A DNA stretch of 64,000 nucleotides from positions 40,852 to 104,851 of IMG/VR virus record IMGVR_UViG_3300042987_002978; one strand, written 5' to 3'. A model generated the notes under the pieces. That model saw only the letters and a list, made by a program, of their open reading frames with translations, had not been told where the DNA came from and did no database searches. This document shows positions 20,064-37,435 of this stretch, piece after piece. Position numbers and translations under genes: made by a program. The DNA comes from a virus. How positions within the stretch are numbered: the stretch's first letter is position 1; every line of letters starts with the position of its first letter.

Positions 20064-20480
20064 TCAGCCGTTTTCTGTCGCGGCGTACGAGGGTGGATAG
20101 TTGCAAGAAGTGGATACCCTTGTGACAACGCTCGTGTTTGTTGGGCATGAATATGTCGTCGTATAGGTTGGGGAAGCCCCATAACCCCATTCTGGTCTGT
20201 GCAGGTTGGCGTTGTCACACGGTCCGCACCAGTTGGTGCAGTTACATCCACAACCTTGACCTGCTCCGATGCACCATCCACCGCAATTTGCGCCGCCAGA
20301 TGGGCAGTAACTGCCGCTTTGCCATGTCCACGCTGTTGCAGAATAATTCGCCGGGTAGTTGCAAGTCGTTCCGCTCAAAGAAACGATTGCCGTGTTGGTA
20401 TTGCAGGTATAGAACACGCTCCTGCGGGACAGGCCGAATCTCCTTGCCGAGCCGCCGCCCAACTTGTTTACGAATGGCAT
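20064..20480 (-). CDS. Cys-rich putative fibre tip/adhesin with class-B leader
   Basis: N-terminus MPFVNKLGGGSARRFGLSR resembles the Gly-rich paralogs' leaders. Central C/G/W-rich loop flanked by duplicated CxTNTxxV..S.T.CNYP..Y.AT. Confidence 0.7.
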   Translation of the reverse strand: MPFVNKLGGGSARRFGLSRRSVFYTCNTNTAIVSLSGTTCNYPANYSATAWTWQSGSYCPSGGANCGGWCIGAGQGCGCNCTNWCGPCDNANLHRPEWGYGASPTYTTTYSCPTNTSVVTRVSTSCNYPPSYAATENG

Positions 20481-20499
20481 AAGTCCCCTTGTTTAAATA

Positions 20500-21363
20500 T
20501 TAGGCGAATCGTGTCTGCGCGGCGAACACGGTGAATGTGGCAGCACCAGTCTTTACTGCGGTCATGGTGTACATATCCACCGAGTTGGCGTTTCCAGATG
20601 TCGGTGCGCCAGTAGAACCCTGCCATTCTGTCGTCACACCAGACGTCGTTCCGTTGATTTGAATCGATGTCGCGTAGTAGGGAGTCGCGCCGTTGGTGAC
20701 CATGAACGACGTGGTGGCCATTTCGCCAGTGGCGAGTTTGCTGTCCAACGTCGTGGAAGAATTCCAGCGCAGGTTGATGACAAAGTTGGCGGCCGCGTTC
20801 GACGTGTAGTAGGTGGTTCCGTTTGCGACATCAACCGCAATCGTTCCCGTTGCCGCAGTCGCAGAAATTGTGATTGGCTCGATGACCGATGTGGTCTTGA
20901 CGCTGGAGAAGGTAACTTCACTTGTCGTGCCTACGGCCTGACCAATGGCAATTGACGCAGAAGAGCCTTCGCCAGGAGTATGAGTGACAGTAACGCCCGT
21001 GCCGGCAACTACGTCAGCGACATAGTTTCCGGTTGTGTCGGTACCGAGAGCGACCGAATTGGCGGCAATCGAGGCGACACCGCCGCTTGTGATTGTCAGG
21101 TCTCCGCTTACCTTGCCAAACACGTACGTCGGGATTCTGCTTGCGTCCATTTTTCTATTGGCAGAAGCGCTAACGTCGTAAATTGGGATGTCGTCAGCGT
21201 CAACTATGTCGGCGTTGATGTCTACTGCGTTTGTAATGTCGATTCCGGCAAGGGCTGGGATGCCACTGAGCAGTCGCCAGGTGGTGCCGTCCCATTTCCA
21301 GGTTCGCTCATCGGCCACATACGTGTCATTTACCGATGGAGAGTTTGGGAAATCGATTGCCAT
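20500..21363 (-). CDS. Fibre branch protein (FPxSPS/WxWxG N-terminus, QTRFA C-terminal domain)
   Basis: Paralog of 23461..24426. Contains one copy of the repeat of the 1364-aa fibre. Confidence 0.75.
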   Translation of the reverse strand: MAIDFPNSPSVNDTYVADERTWKWDGTTWRLLSGIPALAGIDITNAVDINADIVDADDIPIYDVSASANRKMDASRIPTYVFGKVSGDLTITSGGVASIAANSVALGTDTTGNYVADVVAGTGVTVTHTPGEGSSASIAIGQAVGTTSEVTFSSVKTTSVIEPITISATAATGTIAVDVANGTTYYTSNAAANFVINLRWNSSTTLDSKLATGEMATTSFMVTNGATPYYATSIQINGTTSGVTTEWQGSTGAPTSGNANSVDMYTMTAVKTGAATFTVFAAQTRFA

Positions 21364-21455
21364 TGTTCGCCTCCAAGTGGTCCCTGTAATTATGACATAT
21401 CGACGGGGGGACTAGTTAGAAGGGAAAATCGCCCCTTGGTAATAAGGCGCAAAAA

Positions 21456-21806
21456 TCAGCCAGCGGAGACGGCGACCCATGAGGTCGTATCCTCATCCCA
21501 GCGGTATGTTTCCCCGTCGGTTGGATACGGCACCGGTGCCTGCCATCGACAGGTTGACTCGTCAAGAATCCATGAAGCAAAACGCTTAGGGATTATGAAT
21601 GCGTCTCTTTCCTGGTCATACACGCCACCGATAATTGCGTAGTTTTTCCTGAAAGAACCATTTTCGCAAGTTTCTTTCCAGGTTCCGGTCAGACCAAGAG
21701 AAGCGATAAACTGAAGGCCAATTTCTTCAGTTGGGGCATCTTCATCTGATACAAGAATGACATTGGTTACAAAATTATTTTCGTCAAGCGAAGCGTAGTA
21801 TTTCAT
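21456..21806 (-). CDS. Fibre-associated small protein (chaperone-like), paralog of 24430..24798
   Basis: TWKET..FRKNYAIIG..YD.ERDAFI.PK...SWIL.E.TC.W.APV. Confidence 0.75.
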   Translation of the reverse strand: MKYYASLDENNFVTNVILVSDEDAPTEEIGLQFIASLGLTGTWKETCENGSFRKNYAIIGGVYDQERDAFIIPKRFASWILDESTCRWQAPVPYPTDGETYRWDEDTTSWVAVSAG

Positions 21807-21815
21807 GTCGTAATC

Positions 21816-22589
21816 CTACGGACGGAACCTTACGTAGACGATTCCAGAGCCGCCACTTTCGCCTCCGCTGCGCACTGCGCCGCCACCTGCCGACCAACGA
21901 GTTCCACCACCACCGCCACCAGAGTAACTTCCATTGCCAGGACCAGCACCGTTAGAACCGCCCGCACCGTTTCCACCGTTTCTTCCAGAGGTGCCGTTAC
22001 CGCCACCCATGCCGCCTTGCCCCAGCATCGGACCACCACCACCGCCGCCAGCACCACGATAAGTATGACCAGCCGGCTGACCGATGAAAGCCGAAATGTC
22101 GGTTCCGTTACCGCCATTTTGTCCTTGACCTCCACCGTTCGGGGAGCCACCACCGTCGTTACCGCCGCCACCGCCGCCGCCAGTTGAGTTGGTTTGTGAA
22201 CCAAATGTCGTAGTGCCACCATTGCCGCCGTTGCTACTAAGTGCGCCGCCACCGCCACCACCACCAATTGTGATGCTTTGATTTGATGTAAGAGTCAGAA
22301 GCAAACTTTGACGAACCTGTCCGCCACCGCCACCGCCGCCGCCGGCATCGCTACCTTCGTTGCAGCCACCTCCTCCTCCACCGCCGCCACACCATAAGAC
22401 ATCAAACTGCCCCGAGCGAGTGACGGTCAGGGTACCAGAACTGGTGAATGTCAATAAAGTATATGTCTGTCCGTCGACAGTTATGGATGAGGAACTACCA
22501 CCAGTGGCAGCGCCGTAAGGGTTGGGCACTGAGCGAAGAGAGCCAAACCCTCTTCCCGAAGAAGAACCGAATGTTCCAATAATAGGCAT
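21816..22589 (-). CDS. Glycine-rich adhesin-like protein (class-B leader, permuted domain order)
   Basis: Poly-Gly tracts. YTLLTFTSSG is at the N-terminus and GGSGIVYVRF at the C-terminus. Confidence 0.8.
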   Translation of the reverse strand: MPIIGTFGSSSGRGFGSLRSVPNPYGAATGGSSSSITVDGQTYTLLTFTSSGTLTVTRSGQFDVLWCGGGGGGGGCNEGSDAGGGGGGGGQVRQSLLLTLTSNQSITIGGGGGGGALSSNGGNGGTTTFGSQTNSTGGGGGGGNDGGGSPNGGGQGQNGGNGTDISAFIGQPAGHTYRGAGGGGGGPMLGQGGMGGGNGTSGRNGGNGAGGSNGAGPGNGSYSGGGGGGTRWSAGGGAVRSGGESGGSGIVYVRFRP

Positions 22590-22591
22590 AG

Positions 22592-23452
22592 TTACACCAC
22601 CACCAAAGAGCCGCTGCCAGTAAACGTGTGAATTGTGTACGAGCCAGAAGTAGTTTTCGAGCCGCCAGTAATTGTGTAGGCACTTGCGCTTGAGGTCAAG
22701 TAGCGAACAATTACGATTCCGGAGCCGCCGCTTAAACCGCCGCCGCCGCCACCTCCACCGCCGCCAGTGTTTGCCGCTCCTACAGTTGCTCCGTTGCCAG
22801 CATCGTAATATCCACCGTTTCCACCACCACCCGCACCACCTGCTTGACTACTCGGGTCTTGACTGGCTCCACCACCACCACCGGCACGAGTTACAGAAGA
22901 GCCTGTTATGGAAGATGCCCTACCAGAGCCACCTCCACTTGTTCCTCCACCTGCAGCGGCACCACCTCCACCACCGGCTGCATCCGCACCGTTTCCGTTT
23001 CCACCACCATAACCTTGACTTGCAGTGCCGCCAAATCCGCCAGTTGCGCCTGAAGATGCACCGCCACCGCCGGAACCACCAGTACCACCGCCACCGCCGT
23101 TTCTACGACCGCCACCGCCACCCGTAGAAGTTATCGTATGAAAAACGGAGTTGGAACCGTTACCTCCTTCTGCACCACCTCCACCACCGACGGTGACCGT
23201 GTAAGTGCCGGCACCGAGAGAAAGAGCCGCTTCTGCGGCTGCGCCACCGCCCGAAGTTTCGCCGGAGACTGACGACCTATAACCACCTCCGCCACCTCCG
23301 CCGCCGTAAGCACCTATTCCTGTGTCGTTTCGGTTTCCACCGCCGCCACCGGCAACGACAAGATATTCAACGCTGAACAGCGGTCTTGCAAAGACTCGTA
23401 ATCCACCGAACCCTCTTGTTGAGGAAGAACAGAACGTTCCTGAAAGCGGCAT
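22592..23452 (-). CDS. Glycine-rich adhesin-like protein (class-B leader)
   Basis: VEYLVVAGGGGG..GGSGIVIVRY..YTIHTFTGSGS. Confidence 0.8.
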   Translation of the reverse strand: MPLSGTFCSSSTRGFGGLRVFARPLFSVEYLVVAGGGGGNRNDTGIGAYGGGGGGGGYRSSVSGETSGGGAAAEAALSLGAGTYTVTVGGGGGAEGGNGSNSVFHTITSTGGGGGRRNGGGGGTGGSGGGGASSGATGGFGGTASQGYGGGNGNGADAAGGGGGAAAGGGTSGGGSGRASSITGSSVTRAGGGGGASQDPSSQAGGAGGGGNGGYYDAGNGATVGAANTGGGGGGGGGGLSGGSGIVIVRYLTSSASAYTITGGSKTTSGSYTIHTFTGSGSLVVV

Positions 23453-23460
23453 AGTTATTC

Positions 23461-24426
23461 CTATGCGAACTTGGTCTGAGTCTCTAGCACCTGGTATGTC
23501 GGGGTTGCTGCGGTCTTGACAATCGTGAACGAGTAAACGTCAATCGACGAAGCGTTGCCTGCAGAAATTGCGGATGGAACCTTCGGAGTAACTGCCGACC
23601 CGTCAATCTGGATGACGTTCGGATAGTACGGAGTCGCTCCGTTCTGATTCATCCACACGACGGTTATCACGTCGCCTACCGCCAGTTTTGACGAAAGGGT
23701 CGTGCTTGAGTTGTAACGGAAGTTCAGCGTGTGGTTCGCCGTCGCGTTCGATGTGTAGAACCAAATCGACGATGTTGCAATGTCAATGTTGATGGTTCCA
23801 GTAGCGGCCGCGGCAACGACGTTTGCGCGCTCCTGAAGGCCCTGAACGATGAGTTCTTTCGTCAGGTTTGTGTGAGCACCGTTGATTGTCGGGCTCGTCA
23901 AGGTCTTGTTCGTCAGCGTGTCACTTGAGGATGTCGTAACGACGTTTACTCCCTCAATAGTGACGACTCCTGCCGCACTGCGGGCAAGCGTGGTGTCGTT
24001 GGCGTGGCCAAGTTCAATCGAGCCGACACCGAGAGGCGAGGTCGTTGAAGTGCCCAATTTTGAGATAGCGATGGCCGCTGCCGCATTGACATCAGCATCG
24101 ACAATCACGCCTGAAGCAATTGAAGTAACTCCGGAGGAATCAATGGTTACATCGCCAGATTCTGTAACAGAGGTGGGGACCCCAGAGGCGTTGTAAACGA
24201 TGATATTCCCAGCAGTGCTAGTAGCGAGTTTGGACAGTGCAATCGCTGCGGCTGCATTGATGTCCGCATTGACGATTGAGCCGTCGGCCAGTTCAGTCGA
24301 GCCGACCGAACCGGCACCGAGAGCACCGGTAACGATTTTCCACGAAGTGCCGTTCCACTGCCACGTGCGAGCGCCGTCAGTGTACGTCTGGTTGACAGAA
24401 GGACTTGATGGAAATGTTAACGGCAT
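23461..24426 (-). CDS. Fibre branch protein (FPxSPS/WxWxG N-terminus, QTKFA C-terminal domain)
   Basis: MPLTFPSSPSVNQTYTDGARTWQWNGTSW. TLTNKTLTSPTI shaft motif. C-terminal domain shared with 20500..21363. Confidence 0.75.
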   Translation of the reverse strand: MPLTFPSSPSVNQTYTDGARTWQWNGTSWKIVTGALGAGSVGSTELADGSIVNADINAAAAIALSKLATSTAGNIIVYNASGVPTSVTESGDVTIDSSGVTSIASGVIVDADVNAAAAIAISKLGTSTTSPLGVGSIELGHANDTTLARSAAGVVTIEGVNVVTTSSSDTLTNKTLTSPTINGAHTNLTKELIVQGLQERANVVAAAATGTINIDIATSSIWFYTSNATANHTLNFRYNSSTTLSSKLAVGDVITVVWMNQNGATPYYPNVIQIDGSAVTPKVPSAISAGNASSIDVYSFTIVKTAATPTYQVLETQTKFA

Positions 24427-24429
24427 AAA

Positions 24430-24798
24430 TTACTCTCCTTGGGGTACGACTTCATCCCATTGAAGTTCTTCTTCGTTCCAGACCCAGAATCCTGTCTCTG
24501 GACGCGCAACCGGGGCTTCCCAGTCGCATGTTGTCTCGTTGAGAACCCAAGACGGGTACGGCTTCGGTGCGATGAATGCATCGCGCTCGGCATCATACGC
24601 ATAGCCGATTCCGGCATAACGCTTGCGGAAGTTGTTGTTGTACGAGGTTTGCTTCCAAGTGCCGCCGAGAAGATTCGTGCAGAAAGCCACACCGATTTCC
24701 TCACTGGCCGGAAAGTCTCCACCACCGCAATCGTTGTTGGATACGACGATTACCTGCGTCACGATGTTGTCCGAGTCAATTTGGGCAAAATGTGCCAT
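24430..24798 (-). CDS. Fibre-associated small protein (chaperone-like)
   Basis: MAHFAQID..VTQVIVV..WKQTSYN..FRKRYAGIGY.YD..RDAFIAPKPYPSW.L.E.TC.WEAPV. Confidence 0.78.
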   Translation of the reverse strand: MAHFAQIDSDNIVTQVIVVSNNDCGGGDFPASEEIGVAFCTNLLGGTWKQTSYNNNFRKRYAGIGYAYDAERDAFIAPKPYPSWVLNETTCDWEAPVARPETGFWVWNEEELQWDEVVPQGE

Positions 24799-24845
24799 GT
24801 TCTTGCTCTCCTATAGTGGTTGGCTCACATTATAGGCCATGGGCA

Positions 24846-25838
24846 TCAAAGAGTGATTGAACCCGAAGCGGTAAAAGTGTAGATATGGTAGCCGCCTGCG
24901 CCGCCATTGTACGTTGGCGAACCAGTGGTTGATGTTGCCGCCCCGTATGCAGATGTAGGCCATCGAACAATGACAACACCAGAACCACCCTGCCCACCGC
25001 TGCGCCATACCGCATCGTTGTTGAATAGTCCGCCACCACCGCCACCACCCGTGTTGCCGGTTCCTGCAGAGCCGTTGGCAGTGTGCGCTGCGCCGTTTCC
25101 GCCTCCGCCGTTTCCGCCTGCTCCGCCAGAACTGGCGGGTTGTTTTCCGGCGCATCCTCCACCGCCTCCACCGCGCACAACTGCGGACCCAGTGATTGAG
25201 GACGAGACGCCTGCGCCACCGGCACCACCAACACCGTTGATTGTGTTCGCAGCGTTACCGCCGACTGCGCCAGCGCCTCCACCACCACCGGCGGGATAGT
25301 CCTGCAATGCCGATGAACTTCCACCTGCATATCCTTGCCCTGTTGTGCCAGTTCCTGCACTGCCGCCTTCACCACCGCGACCACCACCGGAGCCACCGTT
25401 GCCTGCACTCACCGCTCCAGAACCACCACCGCCGCCGCCAGTTGCGGTTATCGTGGACAATACAGAGTTATTACCGTCGGTTCCTTTTACGTTTGCGTTT
25501 CCTCCGTAGGCACCACCTCCGCCTACCGTAACGGTGTGAGAAGTTGCGACGGCAAGAGCAAGTGTCGATTCTGCAGATGCTCCGCCTCCAGAGTTTTCTC
25601 CAGAAACTGAAGAACGATATCCGCCGGCACCACCGCCGCCGCCTTGTTCAAGTGCGCCTCCTCCGCCTCCACCGCCAGCGATGACCAGGTATTCAACCAG
25701 AACTGGTGTCATCGGCCAGTTCGATGCACCTTTTTCTTGTTGATGGCTTGCCAAACTCCACATACCCGACGCGACAGATGTAGAGATTGTCTGCTTGGGA
25801 CCGAGCCGCCCACCTTTTCTTTGTTTTTTGTTTGGCAT
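24846..25838 (-). CDS. Glycine-rich adhesin-like protein (class-A leader)
   Basis: GGRLGP..SGMWSL..QQ..NWP leader, VEYLVIAGGG, GGSGVVIVRW, YHIYTFT.SGSIT. Confidence 0.8.
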   Translation of the reverse strand: MPNKKQRKGGRLGPKQTISTSVASGMWSLASHQQEKGASNWPMTPVLVEYLVIAGGGGGGGALEQGGGGGAGGYRSSVSGENSGGGASAESTLALAVATSHTVTVGGGGAYGGNANVKGTDGNNSVLSTITATGGGGGGSGAVSAGNGGSGGGRGGEGGSAGTGTTGQGYAGGSSSALQDYPAGGGGGAGAVGGNAANTINGVGGAGGAGVSSSITGSAVVRGGGGGGCAGKQPASSGGAGGNGGGGNGAAHTANGSAGTGNTGGGGGGGLFNNDAVWRSGGQGGSGVVIVRWPTSAYGAATSTTGSPTYNGGAGGYHIYTFTASGSITL

Positions 25839-25846
25839 AGTTACCC

Positions 25847-26833
25847 CTAGAAAGTTATGCTTCCAGAACCGGTGAACGTGTAAATGTGATATCCGCCCGT
25901 GCTCGAATATGACGGTGAGCCTGTCGTTGATGCTGCTTGTAGATACGCGGTTGACCAGCGAATAATCACAATTCCAGAACCACCCGCTCCACCGGGACCA
26001 TCGGCTCCTCCGTCAACCATTCCGCCACCGCCGCCACCAGAGCCAGTGCTGGCCGCGCCTGCAGTAGCAGAGTTTCCATTGTTTACTGACCCACCTCTGC
26101 CGCCAATTCCAGAACCCCCGCAACCACCACCTCCGGGATTTCCGCAAGGACTGGTCACATGGGACCCGTAGCCAGCACCACCACCACCGCCGCCTGCACG
26201 AGTTACAGATGAACCTGTAATACTGTTACTTAAACCAGCGCCGCCGGAACCACCGTTGTAGTAGTCATTTGATGGGCTAGTTTGACCAGCGCCTCCAGCA
26301 CCACCACCACCCCTACCCACGTTTTGGCTGTCTGCGCCTTCACCACCGTCATAACCCTGTGCATTGGTTCCGGTTCCTTTTGAAGCACTACTACTTGCGC
26401 CACCACCAGCGCCGCCGCTTGCTCCGTTGCCGTTATATGAGCCGCCAGCGCCTCCACCAGTAGAGGTGATGCTTCCAAAAACTGAGTTGTTGCCGTTCGT
26501 TTGCGAACCACCGCCGCCGCCGACCGTTACGGTGTAAGTAGTGCCGGCAGACACGGAAAGTGGTGATTCTGCCGCTGAACCTCGCCCAGATGTGGCACCG
26601 CTGACTGATGTGCGATAACCACCAGCGCCACCGCCACCACCGCCGCGGCCGCCGCGTCCTCCACCTGCACCTCCGGCAATTACCAAATATTCAACGGTGG
26701 GCGGAGGATACAGTGTTACCGGCCAGTTCGACGTTCCTTTTTCTTGTTGCTGACTCGTCAAATTCCATACGCCGCTTGCAGCGCTAGTACTTACCGATGA
26801 GCGCGGTCCGATTCTTCCGGCGTTTAAGGACAT
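25847..26833 (-). CDS. Glycine-rich adhesin-like protein (class-A leader)
   Basis: AGRIGP..SGVWNL..QQ..NWP leader with the same conserved blocks. Confidence 0.8.
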   Translation of the reverse strand: MSLNAGRIGPRSSVSTSAASGVWNLTSQQQEKGTSNWPVTLYPPPTVEYLVIAGGAGGGRGGRGGGGGGAGGYRTSVSGATSGRGSAAESPLSVSAGTTYTVTVGGGGGSQTNGNNSVFGSITSTGGGAGGSYNGNGASGGAGGGASSSASKGTGTNAQGYDGGEGADSQNVGRGGGGAGGAGQTSPSNDYYNGGSGGAGLSNSITGSSVTRAGGGGGGAGYGSHVTSPCGNPGGGGCGGSGIGGRGGSVNNGNSATAGAASTGSGGGGGGMVDGGADGPGGAGGSGIVIIRWSTAYLQAASTTGSPSYSSTGGYHIYTFTGSGSITF

Positions 26834-26836
26834 ATA

Positions 26837-27790
26837 TCAAAGAGTAATCGAGCCGGAGCCGTTGAATGTGTAAACGTGATATCCGCCGACGCCGCTGTTG
26901 TATGAGGGGGAACCTGTCGTAGATGTGGCAGCATTGCTGCTTGTTGACCATCTAAGAATCACCACACCAGAACCGCCAGCACCTGAAGTACCGGCACGTG
27001 TTCCACCACCACCGCCGCCAGTGTTTGCCGCTCCAGACTCGCCGTTTGCAGAAGAACCGTTTGCGCTAGCGCCACCACCGCCGGCACCGCCCGCACCAGA
27101 GGTCACATTTGCGTTACCACCACCGCCACCACCGGCGCGAGTCACAGAAGAACCAGTGATTGACGATGCCCTTCCATTCCCACCCCTACCGGCATTATTC
27201 ACCATCACTTGACCCGCTTCTCCGGCACCCCCACCGCCCGAACCGCCGTTACCTCCGCTTGCGCCACCATCAAAACCCTGACCTGCCGTACCTACGCCGT
27301 TGGTGCCAGATTCTCCACCTTTGCCGCCACCACATCCACCGTCTCCGCCATTGATTCCGTGTCCACCTCCGCCACCCCCACCGAGTGAAGTTACAGTAGT
27401 CATTCCCGTTGCGGAAATCGCGCTGTTATTTCCAGCGCCGCCTCTTTGCTGACCACTGACAACGGCGCTACCGCCGCTGCCAACAGTAACGGTCATCACC
27501 GTTCCCCTGGCAAGGGTTACGGTAGATTCGGCTGTTGAGTTTCTTCCGCTTAATTCGCCGATGACAGAACTCCTGTATCCGCCAGCGCCACCGCCACCGC
27601 CACCGGATGCGCCGTCAGCAGAACCACCACCTGCTCCGCCAGCAATTACCAAATATTCAATAGTTAATGATTGAACTGGCCAGTTATTTTGACCCTGATT
27701 TTGTTGCTGGGTATAAAGGTCCCAGAAGCCAGAAGCGCCAGACGTAGAGACCGTTTGTAACGGGCCGATGCGTCCACCGCGCCGGCGCAT
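26837..27790 (-). CDS. Glycine-rich adhesin-like protein (class-A leader)
   Basis: GGRIGP..SGFWDL..QQ..NWP leader with the same conserved blocks. Confidence 0.8.
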   Translation of the reverse strand: MRRRGGRIGPLQTVSTSGASGFWDLYTQQQNQGQNNWPVQSLTIEYLVIAGGAGGGSADGASGGGGGGAGGYRSSVIGELSGRNSTAESTVTLARGTVMTVTVGSGGSAVVSGQQRGGAGNNSAISATGMTTVTSLGGGGGGGHGINGGDGGCGGGKGGESGTNGVGTAGQGFDGGASGGNGGSGGGGAGEAGQVMVNNAGRGGNGRASSITGSSVTRAGGGGGGNANVTSGAGGAGGGGASANGSSANGESGAANTGGGGGGTRAGTSGAGGSGVVILRWSTSSNAATSTTGSPSYNSGVGGYHVYTFNGSGSITL

Positions 27791-28143
27791 TAACTAATCT
27801 CTTCGTAAGAGCAGACCGCCTCAAGGTCAGAGTTCGCGTTTGCAGTAAGACGCAGGGCATCACCTTCTTCTAGGTAAATTGCCTTGGAGATGATGTCGAG
27901 CGTCGCGTCGGCAGGAACCGAGACGGTGTTCGCGATTCGATAGGCAGTCGAGGAGCGGAACAAGTCGACGTTGATGTCCGCCGCGTTGGTGCCGTCCACG
28001 TTCGATACGTACAAGGCGTTGATTTTGAACACCTTGCCACTGGCGGCCGAGTTCGTGACGATTGCCGTCGCGCTCGTGGTGACGGCCATGACTGCCGTCT
28101 TGCCGGTGATTGTTGCTACGTTGACGATGTTCGGTGCTGCCAT
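27790..28143 (-). CDS. Small beta-rich virion adaptor protein
   Basis: MAAPNIVNV..KVFKIN.L.VSNVDG..VPADATL..IYLEEGD.L..SYEEIS. Lies between the long fibre and the Gly-rich genes. Confidence 0.7.
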   Translation of the reverse strand: MAAPNIVNVATITGKTAVMAVTTSATAIVTNSAASGKVFKINALYVSNVDGTNAADINVDLFRSSTAYRIANTVSVPADATLDIISKAIYLEEGDALRLTANANSDLEAVCSYEEIS

Positions 28144-28152
28144 AATCTCTCC

Positions 28153-31100
28153 TTACGAACCGAAGACAATGGCCATTGCGATGGCCTTGCCAGTCGATGC
28201 ATATGTTGGTGTTTGCCATTCTAGACCAGTTGCCGTCGCAGAGTTGGCAACCAGGAGTTGGCCGTTAGTGCCAACCCCGAGACGAGTGACCGTGTCTGCC
28301 GCAGTAGCGGCCAACAGGTCACCTTTGGTCGTGACAATGTCGGTTGTCGGGTCGATGCCCCACTTCAAGCCAGTGGCAGTCGAGGAATCCGCGATGAGAA
28401 CGTATCCGTTCGTACCGACCGTCAGGTTGTCGATGGTGTCGTTGGCAGTACCGACGAGCAAGTCGCCCTTGTTGTCAATGGCGCTCAGGAGCGTGTCGAC
28501 CGCCGATGCGCCGATTTCCACCCAGTTTGAGGCGTAGTACACGTAAGTAGCACCGTCATCAGAGTCAAACCATGTGTCGCCTTCCAGCGGTGACGCAGGC
28601 GGGTTGGAACTGATTGCCAAGCGCGACGCACCGGAGATTGCGCCGACTTCAACCCATGCCGAGTCGTAGTAGACGTAGGTACGGCCGGTGTCTGACTCGA
28701 ACCAGAATTGTCCGTTCAACGGGCTGGCTGGGGCAGTGTCGGAAATCGTCGCGCCGCCAGAACCGAAGTCTGTGTATGTCGTCCCGTCGTTCGTGAACTG
28801 CCACTTGTCGGTGGTCTCGTTCCAACGGATTGCAACCGTGCTGGACGAGCCACGAAGGACCTCGAAACCGGCGTCGTCGCTCGGAGCGCCAGTGGTGACA
28901 TCGCTGTTCAGGGTGACGATATTGTCCTGGATGTTCAGGGTTCCGACAACCGTTAGGTTGTCGTCGACCGTGACGGTTCCGCCAGCGGAGTCAATCGTCA
29001 GGTTGCCTGACGTTGTGTCGATTTCGCCTGATGCGCTGACGCCGATTCGAACCGCGTCAGCAGTGACTCCGGCGAATGACGGACTATCTGACGTCCCGAC
29101 GGCTTGACCAATCGAAACGGAAGCAGTCGAGCCTTCGCCTGCCGTGTGGCTGATAGTGACACCGGTACCAGCGACGACATCTGCCATGTAGTTGCCGACC
29201 GTGTCGGTCCCAAGGTTGATTGGGTCGTTGACCCAGGCGGAGCCATTCCACTTCAGGAAGTCACCAGCAGACGCAGAGGTGATGTTTACATCACCGATAT
29301 CGTCCAGCGCCGCGATACTTTGGGCATCGACGTAGGCAGTCGAGGCGATGTCGACGTAGTTAGTTCCGTTCTCCGTGTATTCCCACTTGTCCGAAGTTTC
29401 GTTCCATCGCAACGAGACGTTGGCCGACGAGCCACGCTCAATTTCGATTCCTGCGTTCTGGCTCGGAGAACCGGTCTCGTTGCTGTTCAGGACGATGAGG
29501 TTGTCGGCGAGATTGATTGTCTCAGTGTTGACTGTCGTCGTCGTCCCGTTGACGGTCAGGTCTCCACCTATTGTTACGTTTCCAGTCGTAGTTACCTGAG
29601 CAAACTGAACCGAAGCAGAAGTTGCCACGTCTTGACCGATTGAAATTGAAGCACTCGAACCTTCGCTAGGAGTATGGACAATTGTGACGCCAGTTCCCTG
29701 AGCAAGGTCTGCCATGTAGTTGCCGGTCGTATCGGTGCCAAGAGCGACTGAATTGGCCTGAACTTGAGCAGTGATTGTTACATCGGTGGAGCCATCAAAA
29801 GAAGCCGAGCCAGACAAATCTCCACCCAATGAAATCGTGCGTGCGGTGTGCAAAGTCGTCGCCGTGTCGGCATGGAGGTTTGCAACTTCTGTAGTTGATG
29901 CGACAACGAATGGCGCACTGCCAGTAGCAATCGTGCTCTCGAAAGTCTCTGCGACTACAGGAGCAGGTGAGTATGTGCCATGGTCTGTGTCAATGGGACT
30001 TGACGGCTCAGGTGTGTACGAATCAAAGAACTTGAACTTGCCGTCCGTCGAATCACGGAAGTAACCAGCGTGCTTGTGTGAACCGTCGTAATAACTAGAG
30101 ACGACACCAGTGTCAAGACCTGCCGCGCTGGCTGTCGTGTTTAGATAGATGAAAGGATTGTCAATTTCAAGGCTGACTTGGTTCTCCGTGACAACCGAGC
30201 CGCTGACGTAGAGGTTGCGCCCGACGATTACGTCATATTGAGTCTCCAACTGATGGAACTCGACCGATGCCGACGTTCCAACGTCCTGACCGATGGCGAT
30301 ACTCGCCGAAGAACCTTCACCAGGAGTGTGGCTGACGGTTACGCCAGTGCCAGCAACAACGTCATTGACATAGTTGCCGACTGTGTCTGTTCCAAGATTT
30401 ATTTGGTCATTGACCCAAACGGCAGAGGCGCTGTCGTACTTGAGGAAGTCGCCATTCGTGAGGCCAGAGACCTTGACGTCGTGGAGTTCTTCAAGTTCAT
30501 AGCCATTCTGCGTGGCAACGTAAATGATGCCGTTGTTGGTCGCGCGAACGACCACGCCGACGAAAACGAGGTGGTCGGGCGATGATGGCTTTGTCGTTGT
30601 GACTTGGCCGTTTGTGCCGAGCCACAAAATGTCTCCGGCGTTGTAGGCCGAAAGGTCCATGCCGTTTGCATAACCGCGCGTGATGACAGAGCCATTTTGT
30701 CCTGCGGCAATTGATGCCGTTACGACACCGACAGTCTTTGACGATGTGGTGTCAGAAGTGTTGTCAGCGCGCTTTACGGAAGCATGGTCTCCGGTGCCAC
30801 CAAACAGGTAGACGACAGTTCCTGCAGTAAGTGTTGTGGCTTCGGCGTTGCGGACGTACGAAACGACTGGCGCGTACGAGTTGACCCAGCCTGCGCCGTC
30901 GTAGCCGAGAGTCTGGAATCGCTCTGGGGTGCCGACGATGACAACATCGCCAAGTTCGTTCAACCCGGCATTGAGGGCGACAGATGCGCTCGAACCTTCG
31001 CCTGGCGTGTGGGTGATGCTGATACCGGTTCCGGCAACGACGTCCGACATGTAGTTTCCGGTCGTGTCCGTTCCGAGGGCGACCGAGTTCGGTTCGACTT

Positions 31101-32247
31101 GCGCGGTAATAGTGATGTTCTGCGAACCGTCGAACGATGCCGAACCTGACAGGTCACCTGCAAGGGAGATGGCTCGTGCTGTTTCCAGCGAAGAAGCCGT
31201 AGTGGCATTTCCGCTCAGTGGAGCCGTGACATGCGCGAAAGTTACGGACGACGAAGTCTCGACGTCCTGTCCGACAGCGATGTTCTTATACGTAGTTCCG
31301 TCTTCGGTTATTTCCCACGAGTCAGTCGTTTCGTTCCAAAGGAGCGAGACGTTAGTTGAACTTCCACGCTCAATCTCGATTCCGGCAGTACCAGAAGGCA
31401 CTCCGGTTACATTGGCATTGAGAACTATGGTGTTGTCTTCGACAAGCAGGTCTTGAGTGTTTAGGGTTGTTGTCGTTCCATTTACTGTCAAATCACCAGA
31501 AATCGTCACTTGCGCAAATGTGACAGAAGCAGAAGTTGCCACGTCTTGACCGATTGCGATTGAGGCCGACGAACCCTCGCCAGGAGTATGACTGACAGTT
31601 ACGCCAGTGCCTGCAACGACATCGTTGACATAGTTACCTGTCGTATCTGTGCCAAGCGCGACAGAGTTTGGTTCTACCGATGCGGTGATTGTGACGTTGC
31701 TTGACCCGTCAAACGATGCAGAACCGCTCAGGTCTCCACCAAGCGAAATCGTTCTTGCGGTCTCAAGCGTCGTGGCCGTATCTGCATTGCCAGTCAAGTC
31801 TCCGGTCACATTGGCAGAAACATGCGCAAAAGTTACAGATGCAGATGTAGCGACGGACTGTCCGATTGAGACAGTCGGAGTCGCTGCTTCACCAGAGTTT
31901 CCGGCGAGCGTGACGCCGGTTCCGGCGACAAGTGACTCGACGTAGTTGCCGACTGTGTCAGTAGAAAGATTTACGGCATCGTTAATCCAGGCAGATGCTG
32001 AACTGTCATAGCGCAAAAAGTCGCCACCTGCGACACTGCTTATTGTTACGTCAGCAAGGTCGTTTATAGAACTCAGCGAAAGCGGGACGTGTGTGTACGA
32101 AAGGGAGTTCCATGCAGTGGTCCCGTCGCCTACCTTGAATTTCCTGGTGTCGGTTTCATAGCCAATTTCTCCAGCAAAAAGAACCGGGTTATTGGACACC
32201 CATGATGCAGCAGTACCGCGCTTGACTTGAATCCTTGCTCCGGCCAT
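28153..32247 (-). CDS. Long repetitive fibre protein with Mtd N-terminal-like anchor domain
   Basis: RIQVKRGTAASW..NPVL.AGEIGYETDT..FKVGDG.TAWN.L.Y. Six DTxGNY..AGTGV..GEG repeats. Two WF(E/D)SD.G.TYVYY..WVE repeats. Ends GKAIAMAIVFGS. Confidence 0.85.
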   Translation of the reverse strand: MAGARIQVKRGTAASWVSNNPVLFAGEIGYETDTRKFKVGDGTTAWNSLSYTHVPLSLSSINDLADVTISSVAGGDFLRYDSSASAWINDAVNLSTDTVGNYVESLVAGTGVTLAGNSGEAATPTVSIGQSVATSASVTFAHVSANVTGDLTGNADTATTLETARTISLGGDLSGSASFDGSSNVTITASVEPNSVALGTDTTGNYVNDVVAGTGVTVSHTPGEGSSASIAIGQDVATSASVTFAQVTISGDLTVNGTTTTLNTQDLLVEDNTIVLNANVTGVPSGTAGIEIERGSSTNVSLLWNETTDSWEITEDGTTYKNIAVGQDVETSSSVTFAHVTAPLSGNATTASSLETARAISLAGDLSGSASFDGSQNITITAQVEPNSVALGTDTTGNYMSDVVAGTGISITHTPGEGSSASVALNAGLNELGDVVIVGTPERFQTLGYDGAGWVNSYAPVVSYVRNAEATTLTAGTVVYLFGGTGDHASVKRADNTSDTTSSKTVGVVTASIAAGQNGSVITRGYANGMDLSAYNAGDILWLGTNGQVTTTKPSSPDHLVFVGVVVRATNNGIIYVATQNGYELEELHDVKVSGLTNGDFLKYDSASAVWVNDQINLGTDTVGNYVNDVVAGTGVTVSHTPGEGSSASIAIGQDVGTSASVEFHQLETQYDVIVGRNLYVSGSVVTENQVSLEIDNPFIYLNTTASAAGLDTGVVSSYYDGSHKHAGYFRDSTDGKFKFFDSYTPEPSSPIDTDHGTYSPAPVVAETFESTIATGSAPFVVASTTEVANLHADTATTLHTARTISLGGDLSGSASFDGSTDVTITAQVQANSVALGTDTTGNYMADLAQGTGVTIVHTPSEGSSASISIGQDVATSASVQFAQVTTTGNVTIGGDLTVNGTTTTVNTETINLADNLIVLNSNETGSPSQNAGIEIERGSSANVSLRWNETSDKWEYTENGTNYVDIASTAYVDAQSIAALDDIGDVNITSASAGDFLKWNGSAWVNDPINLGTDTVGNYMADVVAGTGVTISHTAGEGSTASVSIGQAVGTSDSPSFAGVTADAVRIGVSASGEIDTTSGNLTIDSAGGTVTVDDNLTVVGTLNIQDNIVTLNSDVTTGAPSDDAGFEVLRGSSSTVAIRWNETTDKWQFTNDGTTYTDFGSGGATISDTAPASPLNGQFWFESDTGRTYVYYDSAWVEVGAISGASRLAISSNPPASPLEGDTWFDSDDGATYVYYASNWVEIGASAVDTLLSAIDNKGDLLVGTANDTIDNLTVGTNGYVLIADSSTATGLKWGIDPTTDIVTTKGDLLAATAADTVTRLGVGTNGQLLVANSATATGLEWQTPTYASTGKAIAMAIVFGS

Positions 32248-32699
32248 TACACTGCACCTCCATCAAAACCAATCACGACGTAGTTAGTCACTTCTGCTTC
32301 ATATATTTCCGGTGAAACAATACCACCATCGACATCTCCAGATAACAAACCCCCGCCGGATACTTCTGTCCACGAAGAACTTGAGCGGAAGTAAAATTTG
32401 TCGTTGGTCGTGTCGATTGCGAGAGCACCGTCCGGAAGCGCAGAGGTTGGAGCCCCGTTGGTCGTAAGAGTGACCAAGCCGAGTGCGGACTGGAACACGT
32501 CATCCGTATAGAGGGTGTTTGCAGAAATCCTGTAGAGGTTGGTATCGCCCGTTGCCGCACCGCTGGACCATGTGAGTCGTCCGCCGGCATCGATTCGAAT
32601 ACGTGGGTGGCTGTCCTCGTTTACCCGTGTGGAGATAGCCTCATCACTGGGGCTACTGAACTCAATCCCACGTAGGGGAGTGCCTACAAATCTCGTCAT
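32247..32699 (-). CDS. Virion fibre linker protein
   Basis: GDTNLYR, P..ALPDGALAIDTTN.KFYFR..W, C-terminal DGG motifs. Confidence 0.65.
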   Translation of the reverse strand: MTRFVGTPLRGIEFSSPSDEAISTRVNEDSHPRIRIDAGGRLTWSSGAATGDTNLYRISANTLYTDDVFQSALGLVTLTTNGAPTSALPDGALAIDTTNDKFYFRSSSSWTEVSGGGLLSGDVDGGIVSPEIYEAEVTNYVVIGFDGGAV

Positions 32700-32759
32700 G
32701 TGAATACAGCCTCGACTGTCTTCTGGTTGTTTGTGCCCCTCGGGGCACTATGGCTATTA

Positions 32760-34217
32760 CTAACCAGTTACCACAACCGTGTAGGCATTCGAAGCAGGGG
32801 CCACAGAGAACGAAACTACAACGCTGTCTATTGTGGTCCTTTCAACATCCGCGATAACGGTGTCGTAATTGGAAGAGTCGTACACCTGAACTACCACGGC
32901 ACGCGTGCCGAAATTGTGTGTCACTGTGTACGAAACATCTGTGCCGTTACCGACAGCCTTGTAGGCCACGCGGGCAAGTGTCGGGGTGCTGGTGTTGCTT
33001 CCAGCAGACGGGGTCTCGGCAAGAGCGCCGCGGGCTGCAGATGCACTGGTCTCGCCAGTACCACCTTGGTCAATCGGAAGAGTTCCGGTCGTGTCGTTGG
33101 AGCCCTGAGCAAGGTCAATTGCGTCGCGGCTCAGGACACCGTTCGTGAAAGTGAGGCCATCACCAGCAAGGTTTCCGCTAAGGGCAAGACCGGCACTGGA
33201 CGTTACAAGACCGCTGACCGAGCCGTTAATCTTGATTTGCAATTCATCATCGGAAATCTCAAGACCACCGTTAATGTGTGGCGCGACAGACAGAACACCG
33301 GCAGATGCGCTTAGGCCTGCTCCCGCAGCGCCAGAGGCTATGCGGAGTTCATCATTGTGAACCTCAATGCTCGTTCCATCAACAAGAACGTTGAGCGTTG
33401 AGCCGTCTTTTTCAAGCGCTTCACCGGCGACAATCGTTCCCGCACCGGAGAACTGGACGAATGTAAGGGGAGTTGTCCCAAGGGTGATTGGGTTGTTCGT
33501 TGCGAGAACCCAACCAGTGTCAGCGTACGTTGTACCGTTCGTGACGAAGGTGAACAAACCAGAAGTGACTTCTGCACTGCTGTCTGCGTCTGTCGAACGT
33601 GAAGCCGCGCCAGAGGCAACCGCAACGTAGATACCGTTTTCGCTGGCGGTTGTCTGGTCCTTGACGAGGACGCGGTCGCCGGCTTCAAGGGTGTGCCCGT
33701 CGATTACATCGCCGGCCTCAAGGTCTGTGGCGATGTTGATTGGACCAGTCGTTGCGACATGAACCGACTGCTTGACGTCAAGGCCGCTGCGAGCCGCATC
33801 GACGTATTGCTTGTTCGCTGCATCGAGCGGGTTGGACGGGTCGGCAACCTGGAATCGACCGTTGCCGTCACGAATGACGAGGGTCCCGGTACCATCCGAA
33901 GCGGAGGCGTTGTCCAACTTCGACTTGTCCGAAGCGGACATGACGCCGGCTTGCGAACTTGAAGCGAGGTTCGGCTCGACCGAAATCGCACCGTTCGTTT
34001 CGTTGATTGTTACTGCGGCAGAAGCAGTGCCGACTGAAGAAACAGAGATGATTGCTTTCTTCCACGAAGTGCCATCGAAATACTTGATGGTCTTCTCGGT
34101 GGAGTTGTAAATGAGGCGGCCCTCAAAGTTGCCCGTGTTCGGGTCAGACGCGACGACCTGGAACTTACCGTTCTGCAGTTCGTTTTGGTTAAGGTTAAGG
34201 TTTGTTACGAACTTCAT
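32760..34217 (-). CDS. Tail/neck fibre protein
   Basis: DAANKQYVD..GLDVKQSV..ATT..DRVLVKDQT.ASENGIY. C-terminal THNFGT domain. Confidence 0.78.
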   Translation of the reverse strand: MKFVTNLNLNQNELQNGKFQVVASDPNTGNFEGRLIYNSTEKTIKYFDGTSWKKAIISVSSVGTASAAVTINETNGAISVEPNLASSSQAGVMSASDKSKLDNASASDGTGTLVIRDGNGRFQVADPSNPLDAANKQYVDAARSGLDVKQSVHVATTGPINIATDLEAGDVIDGHTLEAGDRVLVKDQTTASENGIYVAVASGAASRSTDADSSAEVTSGLFTFVTNGTTYADTGWVLATNNPITLGTTPLTFVQFSGAGTIVAGEALEKDGSTLNVLVDGTSIEVHNDELRIASGAAGAGLSASAGVLSVAPHINGGLEISDDELQIKINGSVSGLVTSSAGLALSGNLAGDGLTFTNGVLSRDAIDLAQGSNDTTGTLPIDQGGTGETSASAARGALAETPSAGSNTSTPTLARVAYKAVGNGTDVSYTVTHNFGTRAVVVQVYDSSNYDTVIADVERTTIDSVVVSFSVAPASNAYTVVVTG

Positions 34218-34241
34218 CTCGGACTACCTCCAGAATCTCTC

Positions 34242-34916
34242 CTAAGAAAGATACGCCTTTCCAGCGAAAGAGTGTGAGAAGGTCACCGTCAGGGCATTTT
34301 CTGACAAATAGGTGACCTCACCAACGACCTTCGAAAGCGCCGTATCGACGATGCTCACGTTCGGATAGAACTTCATGTTGTGCGTGATGTTCCAGGTTGA
34401 GGCGGCAGTCGGCTGGTCGTGGACGTATCGAGAGCGAGTGCGGAGTTCTTCAATCGCATCCTGAACGTTCGTTGACGTGATTTCAGAAGTTGCATTGAAA
34501 GAAATGCCTCCAGCAGAGGCGCTTTCACCGAATGCGTCGTCAACGTACTCGACAGTCGCATAGTTGACCTGTACAACCGGGTCTATGTTCGGTACTAAAT
34601 CAGCAAGGTCAACTGTCCCGCCGATTGCGTCTTTGTCCAAAGAAATGAAGTATTTGTTTAGTGCAGCACCCTTGATTCTCTCAGTGACTTCGTAGGTAAC
34701 GCCTTTTGGCTCTGTGTCCGTGTCGTTGGTTGCATAAAGAGAAACCGAAAATGTCCCAGAAGCACTGAGGCTCGCGCTTACTTCCGTCGGGGCAATCGTC
34801 AAGTTCTGCGACGGCTGCCGCATCGGGGCGGTGGCAAGAAAGGTCACGCGCCCTTGGGCCGGGTTGCCAATGCCGTCGAGGAACTCGCCGGTGACGGTGA
34901 TTTGCGTGAATGCCAT
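34242..34916 (-). CDS. Fibre attachment/minor virion protein
   Basis: N-terminal Ig/prealbumin-like segment (TVTG.F.D..G.PAQGRVTF). C-terminal W.ITHN..YPNV..GKAYLS domain. Confidence 0.65.
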   Translation of the reverse strand: MAFTQITVTGEFLDGIGNPAQGRVTFLATAPMRQPSQNLTIAPTEVSASLSASGTFSVSLYATNDTDTEPKGVTYEVTERIKGAALNKYFISLDKDAIGGTVDLADLVPNIDPVVQVNYATVEYVDDAFGESASAGGISFNATSEITSTNVQDAIEELRTRSRYVHDQPTAASTWNITHNMKFYPNVSIVDTALSKVVGEVTYLSENALTVTFSHSFAGKAYLS

Positions 34917-35305
34917 TATTGCGCCTTCTGAATGACGTTGAGAGTGACCGAGTGCAAAATTGTATCATCAGTCGATGAGAGGACGCGCTGTATATCGAAT
35001 ACCCTGACCCTGAAAATGTCCTGATTTGCAGTTATCGGCTGGCTATCCAAGGCAGCAACCACGTCGTCAACCAATGTCGTATTTTCAGCAGTTCGAAGTT
35101 GCCATAGGTTCACCCGTACCTGCCTGTTTCGGGCAAGCACGGTTTTGTCCCCGTAAAGAATCGGCTGGTTTGTCACCTCATCGCTGATTGTGACGTACGG
35201 GTACTCCGTTTCCGGCGGAGCAATGTCCCTGTAAATCTTAGAGTTGACACCAGCAAGATTTGCATTGACGAGTGTCGTCCTGATTGCGCCGCCGACGGAT
35301 GCCAT
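34916..35305 (-). CDS. Tail terminator/completion protein
   Basis: IY.D.AP..YPYVTI..V.VNLW. Position after the gp10-like gene. Confidence 0.75.
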   Translation of the reverse strand: MASVGGAIRTTLVNANLAGVNSKIYRDIAPPETEYPYVTISDEVTNQPILYGDKTVLARNRQVRVNLWQLRTAENTTLVDDVVAALDSQPITANQDIFRVRVFDIQRVLSSTDDTILHSVTLNVIQKAQ

Positions 35306-35871: not shown

Positions 35872-35872
35872 A

Positions 35873-36214: not shown

Positions 36215-36216
36215 GG

Positions 36217-36777: not shown

Positions 36778-36819
36778 GCGGCCGATAATACACCAGACAA
36801 GAAAATTATTGAAATTGGC

Positions 36820-37215: not shown

Positions 37216-37218
37216 GGG

Positions 37219-37377: not shown

Positions 37378-37404
37378 GACTACATCATACCTGATTGTCA
37401 ATAT

Positions 37405-37435
37405 AAAAAGAAAGGCCCGGGGTTTCCCCCGGGCC
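37405..37435 (-). terminator. Intrinsic terminator after major capsid gene
   Basis: GGCCCGGGG-GAAA-CCCCGGGCC followed by TTTCTTTTT. Confidence 0.88.

Follow-up and report, generated by a model that had tools for sequence, protein, structure and literature searches.

Matched end motifs in a fifteen-gene fibre cluster of an uncultured tailed phage suggest a segmented, probably branched receptor-binding appendage

The 104,851-bp genome of an uncultured tailed phage encodes a fibre kit of 15 genes, located in the window (the whole 64-kb stretch of DNA that was analysed) as fifteen co-oriented open reading frames on the minus strand, from position 34916 down to 20064, with intergenic gaps of −1 to 92 nt. 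The cluster comes after the head-tail connector genes, and the genes for the major tail and tape-measure proteins are 15 to 30 kb distant. The genes and their features are, in the direction of transcription:

34242..34916, minus strand: 224-aa protein, first of the cluster; N terminus like that of a tail fibre, C terminus a small beta domain
32760..34217, minus strand: 485-aa fibre- or decoration-like protein; phrog_2647 "head decoration" (E 7.6e-46) and several tail-fibre phrogs
32247..32699, minus strand: 150-aa protein; its stop overlaps the start codon of the trunk
28153..32247, minus strand: trunk fibre, 1364 aa; Mtd_N domain, tail-fibre phrogs
28651..28731, minus strand: WF unit 1 of the trunk, PASPLNGQFWFESDTGRTYVYYDSAWV
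28519..28599, minus strand: WF unit 2 of the trunk, PASPLEGDTWFDSDDGATYVYYASNWV
28156..28191, minus strand: C-terminal tail of the trunk, GKAIAMAIVFGS, putative trunk side of the class-A junction; a GKAIAM(A/S)IVFGG-type end
27790..28143, minus strand: 117-aa jelly-roll protein, putative middle piece of the class-A junction, as judged from an AF2 model, conservation and fusions
26837..27790, minus strand: class-A tip 1, 317 aa, Gly-rich (Gly_rich_2, 64.4 bits); leader (leader-A HMM) in the first ~45 codons, 27656-27790
25847..26833, minus strand: class-A tip 2, 328 aa, Gly-rich (Gly_rich_2, 43.6 bits); 54% identical to tip 1
24846..25838, minus strand: class-A tip 3, 330 aa, Gly-rich (Gly_rich_2, 51.9 bits); 54% identical to class-A tips 1 and 2
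24430..24798, minus strand: small 122-aa protein; phrog_7759 (E 5.3e-46)
23461..24426, minus strand: branch adaptor 1, 321 aa; FPxSP unit (24340-24414), shaft and QTKFA knob (23464-23856); phrog_5906
22592..23452, minus strand: class-B tip 1, 286 aa, Gly-rich; leader 23402-23452 (leader-B HMM)
21816..22589, minus strand: class-B tip 2, 257 aa, Gly-rich (Gly_rich_2, 39.8 bits); leader 22539-22589 (leader-B HMM, 25.6 bits)
21456..21806, minus strand: 116-aa paralogue of the 122-aa protein, 48% identical to it
20500..21363, minus strand: branch adaptor 2, 287 aa; FPxSP unit (21277-21351), a shaft repeat also present in the trunk, and QTRFA knob (about 20503-20904)
20064..20480, minus strand: class-B tip 3, 138 aa, Cys-rich; leader MPFVNKLGGGSARRFG at 20430-20480

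The start of the 224-aa protein coincides with the stop of a tail-completion gp17-like gene (34916-35305). Its residues 6-123 matched phrog_14726 (tail fiber; E 1.8e-13) and its C terminus phrog_30556 (E 1.3e-17), while residues 168-262 of the 485-aa protein matched the "capsid decoration protein" of PDB entry 9nx3 (E 9.3e-7). In a relative (L082), the 897-aa trunk opens with the MTRFVGTPLRGIEF sequence of the 150-aa protein and ends with TTGKAIAMSIVFGG. Residues 6-44 of the 1364-aa trunk belong to Pfam Mtd_N (PF18454; 51.6 bits, cut-off 26.3), and the N terminus of the phage hyaluronidase HylP and Dec-like repeats were matched in the PDB.

Regular expressions and HMM scans were applied to the whole 104,851-bp genome. 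Exactly two WF units were found, both within the trunk (59.5 and 52.9 bits with WF-unit HMM A5; next best, 7), and no third unit in the genome with this model. The FPxSP N terminus also occurred exactly twice (24414 and 21351; 46.5 and 45.3 bits; next best, 6), as did the QT(R/K)FA C terminus, and there were exactly three class-B leaders (23452, 22589 and 20480), one GKAIAMAIVFGS C terminus and three class-A leaders. The counts given for these motifs in the original prediction thus hold at the scale of the genome. The two proteins combining FPxSP and QTxFA ends are paralogues with 37% mutual identity; adaptor 2 is in addition 35 to 45% identical to trunk repeats. Hundreds to thousands of phages from the environment possess these three sets of matching end motifs. 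Cultured carriers exist as well, for instance, Pelagibacter phage HTVC033P and Synechococcus phage Bellamy.

The pairing of leaders with the modules in front of them was evaluated by HMM scans of 160 viral loci plus the window, which yielded 190 leaders (110 class A and 80 class B) from loci retrieved with the socket modules as queries, a sample in which leaders without any socket are under-represented. All 80 class-B leaders were located behind a QTKFA-type knob or another class-B tip. The 110 class-A leaders were behind a homologue of the 117-aa protein or another class-A tip, except for two (L008/L009) that followed an intervening 74-aa ORF inside the same tip array. Cross-pairings between the classes were not present among the 190 leaders in the loci scanned, so that the cognate pairs were never found independently, as had been expected, and joint B was obeyed in 53 to 54 of 55 unique pairs of a knob and the next ORF. 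Many N-terminal anchors without mutual relationship share these joints, as do at least five unrelated tip bodies. This strict pairing may indicate a physical docking of the paired modules; alternatively, it could result from the linkage of co-inherited adjacent genes and shared assembly needs.

On the class-B side, the AF2 model of adaptor 1 consisted of an N-terminal three-strand unit (pLDDT 83-89), a poorly modelled shaft and a C-terminal beta-sandwich (75-92), and phrog_5906 covered residues 154-286 of adaptor 2 (E 9.2e-21). The QTKFA knob is 65 to 83% identical across 254 viral contigs and was confined to the C terminus in each of 120 longer proteins. The best structural match of its model was the knob of the Pa223 capsid spike gp52 (9ny6_C; a middling Z of 7.1, rmsd 3.2 over 97 residues), which its authors termed a canonical TNF fold (10.1101/2025.06.11.659172); the Foldseek probability for T4 gp9 was only 0.23, and no sequence match was found between the knob and the T4 gp10-like branching domain of anchor-branch receptor-binding proteins (RBPs), as known from Klebsiella KP32-type phages, CBA120 and G7C. 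The class-B leader, M(S)P(I/L)..(T/S)(L/F)A(N/G).S..G(Y/F)(G/R), comprises about 17 residues. Class-B tip 1 reached 21.8 bits for Gly_rich_2 (PF21722), below the gathering cut-off of 24.3 bits, and is nevertheless 50 to 52% identical to the class-A bodies, while the unrelated, Cys-rich tip 3 is not a Gly_rich_2 member and was without a family match in Pfam and phrog searches. The leader class is therefore independent of the body, as was noted originally, and this single leader type is borne by at least five unrelated body types.

On the class-A side, about 75 of 81 ORFs preceding a homologue of the 117-aa protein on viral contigs ended with GKAIAM(A/S)IVFGG, irrespective of N terminus or length (67-1356 aa). 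The AF2 model of the 117-aa protein (pLDDT 88.8) is all-beta and a single jelly-roll, with Z scores of 9.6 to 8.8 to the nucleoplasmin core, a phage cement protein, a viral turret and Ena. This fold is generic, and fold matches across the cluster are middling (Z 6-9.6). The family comprises at least 8000 protein clusters, none of them named. The core of the class-A leader, (S/T).ASG(I/V)W.L..(10)..NWP, is found on several body types. Arrays with one, two or three tips at joint A numbered 37, 8 and 7, respectively, and never contained more than three tips, which fits a three-fold socket.

Taken together, the cluster is more probably than otherwise the blueprint of a segmented and probably branched receptor-binding appendage, made from separately produced parts that would be held together by three orthogonal joints. 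At joint A, the 117-aa jelly-roll connector would come after the hydrophobic strand at the C terminus of the trunk (GKAIAMAIVFGS) and hold up to three class-A tips. At joint B, a TNF-like C-terminal knob ending in QT(K/R)FA would hold tips that start with the class-B leader. At the third joint, one WF repeat of the trunk would correspond to one adaptor beginning with the homologous FPxSP unit. With two adaptors, each terminating in a joint-B knob, the trunk would bear three class-A tips plus two side branches with two and one class-B tips, respectively, so that a single trunk probably presents six different tips for binding to the host, i.e., five Gly-rich heads that weakly match the head of the Pam3 gp24 tail fibre and one Cys-rich tip. 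The stoichiometry, the tree topology and the binding of the tips to host receptors are all part of what is proposed here.

The evaluation of the third joint needs to consider the relationship of its two partners. The WF repeats, about 42 to 44 aa long and near the C terminus of the trunk, and the FPxSP termini are homologous variants of a single ~27-aa unit (hhalign 87.5%, E 3.6e-6). They had been regarded as an unlike plug and socket, and this part of the original prediction needs correction since both are the same kind of unit, for which a simple plug-versus-socket picture is not suited. Given their homology, the FPxSP unit may be merely the first shaft or trimerisation unit of each adaptor. 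The 32-residue unit superposed on small trimerising beta units, those of collagen XV/XVIII NC1 (Z 2.8-2.9), as well as on part of CBA120 TSP3. In this case, several independent fibres instead of a tree would exist, with the FPxSP adaptors, and possibly also the trunk, individually attached to the baseplate, neck or capsid by their N-terminal units, A and B as real end-to-end joints, and the WF repeats as ordinary shaft repeats from the same ancestral unit. Exceptions to the count rule would also agree with this explanation, which is nevertheless judged unlikely due to the numbers of the two units. WF units and genes starting with FPxSP numbered 2/2 in this genome, 2/2, 2/2, 3/3 and 3/3 in four other near-complete contigs, and 4/4, 2/2, 2/2 and 4/3-4 in fragments. 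Among 32 dereplicated genomes or loci, both numbers were equal in 22, compared to 8.9 equal cases expected under shuffling, and off by one in 9 (Spearman 0.77). The rule misses by one in about 30% of the loci, which truncation of the flanks explains for some but not clearly all of them. Equal numbers at values from 1 to 4 are difficult to account for unless the relation is one to one. The copy-number comparison called for in the original prediction is in its favour, the WF repeats of a trunk tracking the FPxSP genes in number. The original prediction is partly supported, by the pairing, the count relation, the modular bodies and the fusions described below, but not in its plug-and-socket form at the WF/FPxSP joint, and the branches may or may not hang on the trunk.

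Alternatively, the conserved pieces may serve assembly: the 117-aa protein would be a chaperone outside the virion that acts on the trunk C terminus and the tips, and the leaders would be recognition or assembly tags, maybe buried or removed. Small size and extreme conservation of the 117-aa protein would agree with this, and genes for fibre chaperones are typically located directly behind fibre genes, for instance, Pam3 gp25 behind gp24 (PMC9608196). This possibility appears quite improbable. The jelly-roll behaves as a structural module, being the N-terminal domain in natural fusions with a Gly_rich_2 tip (P0203), with Laminin_G_3 lectin-like domains (P0198 and others) and with a stalk bearing a Peptidase_S74 chaperone domain (P0134), and once the C-terminal domain of an Mtd_N trunk (P0219); these fusions to tips and to a trunk point to a structural adaptor. 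Moreover, the position of a chaperone behind the Gly-rich tips is already taken by the other small family, phrog_7759. Homologues of the 122-aa protein, for which no relation was found in Pfam, PDB or Atlas, were encoded directly behind an ORF with at least 25% Gly in 80 of 98 unique cases in the loci, a gene position directly behind the client like that of the Pam3 gp25 and Mu Tfa chaperones. The 122- and 116-aa proteins are more likely folding chaperones for the Gly-rich tips than parts of the fibre, which differs from the original reading.

The idea that the junction sequences are recombination linkers, which would act as blocks of DNA homology for cassette exchange with no role as protein interfaces, is very improbable: conserved blocks between variable anchors and bodies are the pattern that mosaic exchange yields, but synonymous sites are saturated in the 117-aa gene (pS 0.87, dN/dS ~0.05) and the knob (pS 0.81), and both are 82% identical as protein compared to about 68% as DNA, so that conservation, in form of purifying selection, acts on the protein and not on the DNA.

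A segmented appendage of this kind can be compared to known systems. In the long tail fibre of T4, the segments gp34, gp35, gp36 and gp37 are joined end to end, with the small connector gp35 at one joint, yielding a linear fibre with one tip. The position of the 117-aa protein between trunk and tips resembles that of gp35, homology to T4 not being detected. The principle of anchor and branch is known from podophages of Klebsiella, namely KP32, K11 and KP34, in which the primary fibre possesses a branching domain and secondary RBPs dock by a short conserved N-terminal peptide (PMC6872550), a docking that was tested experimentally (PMC13352976). Exchangeable bodies and a short conserved N-terminal peptide independent of the body are shared features. 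In contrast, the joints proposed here show no relationship in sequence, one of them would need a separate jelly-roll protein, three orthogonal joint types are present in one phage, the heads are Gly-rich instead of depolymerases, and the repeat number appears to set the number of branches. In the TSP1-4 complex of CBA120, tailspikes are mounted on one another via N-terminal docking domains (TSP4-N structures 7rej, 7rfv). The QTKFA knob model superposed on residues 79-180 of TSP4-N (a middling Z of 6.2, rmsd 3.3 over 92 residues), but the knob is strictly C-terminal.

In T2/S16-type phages, the gp37 fibre is capped by the separately encoded Gly-rich adhesin gp38 (PDB 6F45; PMC9608196). A separately encoded Gly-rich adhesin with its N terminus on the C-terminal end of a trimeric fibre is also proposed here, although a socket would have as many as three alternative tips, the sockets fall into two classes, and bodies other than Gly-rich ones occur on the same leaders; a sequence relation to gp37/gp38 was not found. 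The Pam3 fibre gp24 combines a TNF-like and a Gly-rich receptor-binding head, with the small chaperone gene gp25 directly behind (7YPX, 7YFW; PMC9608196, PMC9942802). Tip profile A4 had 7yfw and 7ypx as top PDB matches, weakly (E 0.0023-0.0031) and over profile positions 31-158. Pam3 gp24, however, docks straight on the baseplate via an N-terminal helix bundle, whereas the heads here have short leaders behind dedicated socket modules.

A description of these three joints was not found in the literature. It may be, as a tentative view, that uncultured aquatic phages use a countable assembly code, in which the number of WF repeats fixes that of the side branches, the three orthogonal joints (WF/FPxSP, A and B) let anchors, shafts and heads combine freely, and the jelly-roll connector represents a major undescribed family of virion proteins. 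What is chiefly missing for uncultured phages is knowledge of their host range. If the joints are docking interfaces, the number of branches and the placement of tips could be read from the sequence, and the variable heads could be singled out as the receptor-binding parts. Such a reading would be possible for a very large number of phages from the environment, as judged from the clusters of the connector alone, and three natural orthogonal connector systems would be added to the one kind studied in Klebsiella phages, a gp10-like domain plus a conserved peptide.

The motif counts in the original prediction for the 15-gene fibre cluster were borne out when the whole genome was searched. There were two WF units, which are the repeats within the 1364-aa trunk fibre (28153 to 32247), two FPxSP units at the N-termini of the branch adaptors 1 (23461 to 24426) and 2 (20500 to 21363), two QT(R/K)FA C-termini (the "knobs" of these adaptors), three class-B leaders on the tips following the knobs, one GKAIAMAIVFGS C-terminus at the end of the trunk, and three class-A leaders. 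Each of these sets was separated by a large score gap from the next best matches in the genome, and the paralogy among the cluster proteins was also as stated there. Family searches assigned the N-terminus of the trunk to Mtd_N, both knobs to phrog_5906, the small 122-aa protein (24430 to 24798) to phrog_7759, and four tips to Gly_rich_2, with the fifth Gly-rich tip, 22592, just under the cut-off; the Cys-rich tip had no family match in the same searches.

"Joint A" comprises the trunk C-terminus, the 117-aa protein (27790 to 28143) and the class-A leader. The 117-aa protein had more than 599 matches in IMG/VR with 78 to 91% identity and at least 8000 protein clusters in a large protein collection, none of them with a Pfam domain, and the family bore no name beyond "hypothetical protein" in any source searched. 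In 81 loci, the ORF upstream of the 117-aa gene was 67 to 1356 aa long with many different N-termini, ended in GKAIAM(A/S)IVFGG in about 75 of them, and the ORF downstream carried the class-A core. Two cultured phages also contained the triad, Pelagibacter phage HTVC033P with gp66/gp65/gp64/gp62 and Synechococcus phage Bellamy with gp39/gp40/gp41; there, its annotation is hypothetical. Arrays of one, two or three class-A tips occurred 37, 8 and 7 times, respectively, and more than three tips were never seen. The predicted structure of the 117-aa protein was one jelly-roll domain (pLDDT 88.8); this fold is generic, matching 408 chains at Z >= 5, and gives no functional reading. A common 225-aa variant of this connector contained an insertion of about 108 residues with a cupredoxin-like H..C..H..M pattern, and 384-aa variants contained a larger domain in the same loop (entry P0121 and P0185).

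"Joint B" comprises the knob and the class-B leader. The 254 relatives of adaptor 1 found in the IMG/VR scan were conserved only in the last 130 residues or so (65 to 83% identity), and the N-terminal parts preceding the knob were of five or more unrelated types. Among 55 unique knob/next-ORF pairs, the second ORF started 0 to 14 nt downstream of the knob and was opened by the class-B peptide in 53 to 54 of them, three of these ORFs having GTG or TTG starts. The leader itself was some 17 residues long; behind it came a variable linker and then one of at least five unrelated bodies, a diversity that upholds the claim that the leader class does not depend on the tip body. The knob was strictly C-terminal in all 120 longer knob-bearing proteins, none of which was a knob-tip fusion. 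B arrays contained one tip each and two tips in this window only. The structure prediction for the knob was a confident beta-sandwich with middling similarity to the Pa223 capsid spike knob of the TNF fold as the nearest match (Z 7.1; 10.1101/2025.06.11.659172) and to the CBA120 TSP4-N docking region (Z 6.2).

The specificity of leaders for sockets was evaluated with HMMs of both leaders in 160 loci plus the window; these loci had been collected with the sockets as queries, which places socketless leaders outside the reach of the test. All 80 class-B leaders followed a knob or another B tip, and the 110 class-A leaders came after another A tip or a homologue of the 117-aa protein, with the exception of two (in L008 and L009) that were located behind a 74-aa ORF inside the same tip array. 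The number of A/B cross-pairings in this set was zero. What looked like exceptions were either variant spellings of these ends or resulted from a wrong choice among overlapping ORFs. That joints A and B are functional couplings is well supported. A third joint type, not present in the window's genome, was found in L008 (340-5010) and also in L007 and L009. It comprises a fibre end ..AALIIMDIGA, a 112-aa protein with no more than distant similarity to the 117-aa jelly-roll family (21 to 24% identity), and tips with the leader ..C.ST.RP..P..GQ.I.ETDT, which contains a WF-like unit (18 to 28 bits with the A5 HMM).

Conserved blocks at gene junctions might serve purely as linkers for recombination. 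With the window's copies as reference, the 117-aa gene had a median identity of 82% for the protein and 68% for the DNA, saturated synonymous sites (pS 0.87) and a dN/dS of about 0.05, and the knob, over its final 90 codons, gave 82%, 68% and a pS of 0.81. The conservation of the socket modules is on the protein, which argues against pure recombination linkers. A role of the 117-aa protein solely as a chaperone is unlikely because the jelly-roll was fused to partners on both sides: N-terminally to a Gly_rich_2 tip in P0203, to Laminin_G_3 lectin-like domains in P0198 and seven others, to a stalk whose last domain is a Peptidase_S74 intramolecular chaperone in P0134, and C-terminally to an Mtd_N trunk in P0219. 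Fusions on both sides are a classical sign of parts that form one physical chain, here trunk, connector and tip, and this reading of joint A is reasonably supported. P0203 also contained the first half of a long class-A leader (NGGIIGP) before the Gly-rich body and a GVWSLQEQ...NNQW motif at its extreme C-terminus, at the point where the ORF runs into the end of the contig; P0203 may represent several tips in series in a single reading frame.

Relatives of the 122-aa protein and its 116-aa paralogue (21456 to 21806) were located directly behind a Gly-rich ORF in 80 of 98 unique cases, the position of the fibre chaperone gene gp25 behind gp24 in Pam3 (PMC9608196). Pam3 gp24 also provided the sole hits of note when a tip profile was compared with PDB (E 2-3e-3). 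Searches of PDB by phmmer with a tip, the 122-aa protein, the knob protein or the 117-aa protein gave nothing useful, and an Atlas search with the 122-aa protein retrieved unnamed viral clusters only.

The WF and FPxSP units were homologous by profile comparison (87.5%, E 3.6e-6). Counted with HMM searches of whole contigs, their numbers (WF/FPxSP) were 2/2 in the window's genome, 2/2, 2/2, 3/3 and 3/3 in four other near-complete contigs (91 to 100%), 4-5/4 in a 79%-complete contig, and 4/4, 2/2, 2/2 and 4/3-4 in fragments. After addition of 80 further loci found with the WF profile and dereplication to 32 cases, some with truncated flanks, 22 counts were equal, nine differed by one and one by two. 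Shuffling yielded 8.9 equal counts instead of the observed 22 (Spearman 0.77; n = 32, kinship not controlled). The predicted rule that "two equals two" agreed with this genome and with 22 of the 32 cases but was not exact, since 10 differed; the relation between the counts is nevertheless strong. Earlier counts of one WF unit against two to three FPxSP units, obtained with regular expressions on truncated loci, were superseded because degenerate WF units had been missed, and the seemingly N-terminal WF unit in L155 was due to a wrong ORF call, the open frame there being 421 aa long with four units.

The window represents bases 40852-104851 of one 104,851-bp viral contig. A megablast search with 24 kb gave no match to a cultured phage and no close relative among them; the HK97-fold capsid protein (37456-38724) was at most 52% identical to its counterparts from Brevibacterium and Gordonia phages. 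On the minus strand, the packaging and capsid genes are followed by an HK97 gp10-like gene, a tail-completion gp17-like gene and the fibre cluster.

34916-35305, minus strand: tail-completion gp17-like gene
34916 to 20064, minus strand: 15-gene fibre cluster
17459-19165, plus strand: carbamoyltransferase, past the fibre cluster
15622-16825: two 2OG-Fe(II) oxygenase-like genes, past the fibre cluster
13357-15572: two glycosyltransferases, past the fibre cluster
5234-5791: major tail protein, after the helicase and endolysin

Farther past the cluster and the enzyme genes are a 1077-aa protein without assigned function, a helicase and an endolysin, and a long ORF running off the window past the major tail protein is presumably the tape measure. 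By this gene order, the cluster adjoins the neck genes and is distant from the tail genes. The head and neck genes (34916-38724) and the major tail and presumed tape-measure genes (1-5791) lie about 29 kb apart, with fibre, enzyme, helicase and endolysin genes between them, an unusual spacing for a siphovirus-type structural module. Within the cluster, a 485-aa protein (32760-34217) matched tail-fibre families as well as phrog_2647 "head decoration" (E 7.6e-46) and, among solved structures, the "capsid decoration protein" 9nx3 (E 9.3e-7); its central domain is evidently common to head and tail appendages. The stop codon of a 150-aa gene (32247-32699) overlaps the trunk start codon, and in the 117-kb relative L082 the counterpart of this gene is the N-terminus of the trunk itself (897-aa ORF), a gene split or fusion at the proximal end of the trunk. 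In HTVC033P and Bellamy, 2OG-Fe(II) oxygenase genes directly follow the homologous fibre/jelly-roll/Gly-rich module (L242, 9533-10351; L243, 10101-10378). The location of oxygenase genes behind the fibre module in all three phages suggests that parts of the fibre are modified post-translationally.

Anchor-branch receptor-binding systems (PMC6872550, PMC13352976) and the gp37-gp38 adhesin cap have a design like that proposed here, but the joint modules have no detectable relation to either. A description of these joints was not found in the literature, which is weak evidence of novelty since the coverage was incomplete. The best-supported reading of the sequences is a segmented appendage with parts that would be held by three orthogonal joints, A, B and WF/FPxSP, and with branches that would be set by the WF repeats, the count rule being the only basis for the tree topology.
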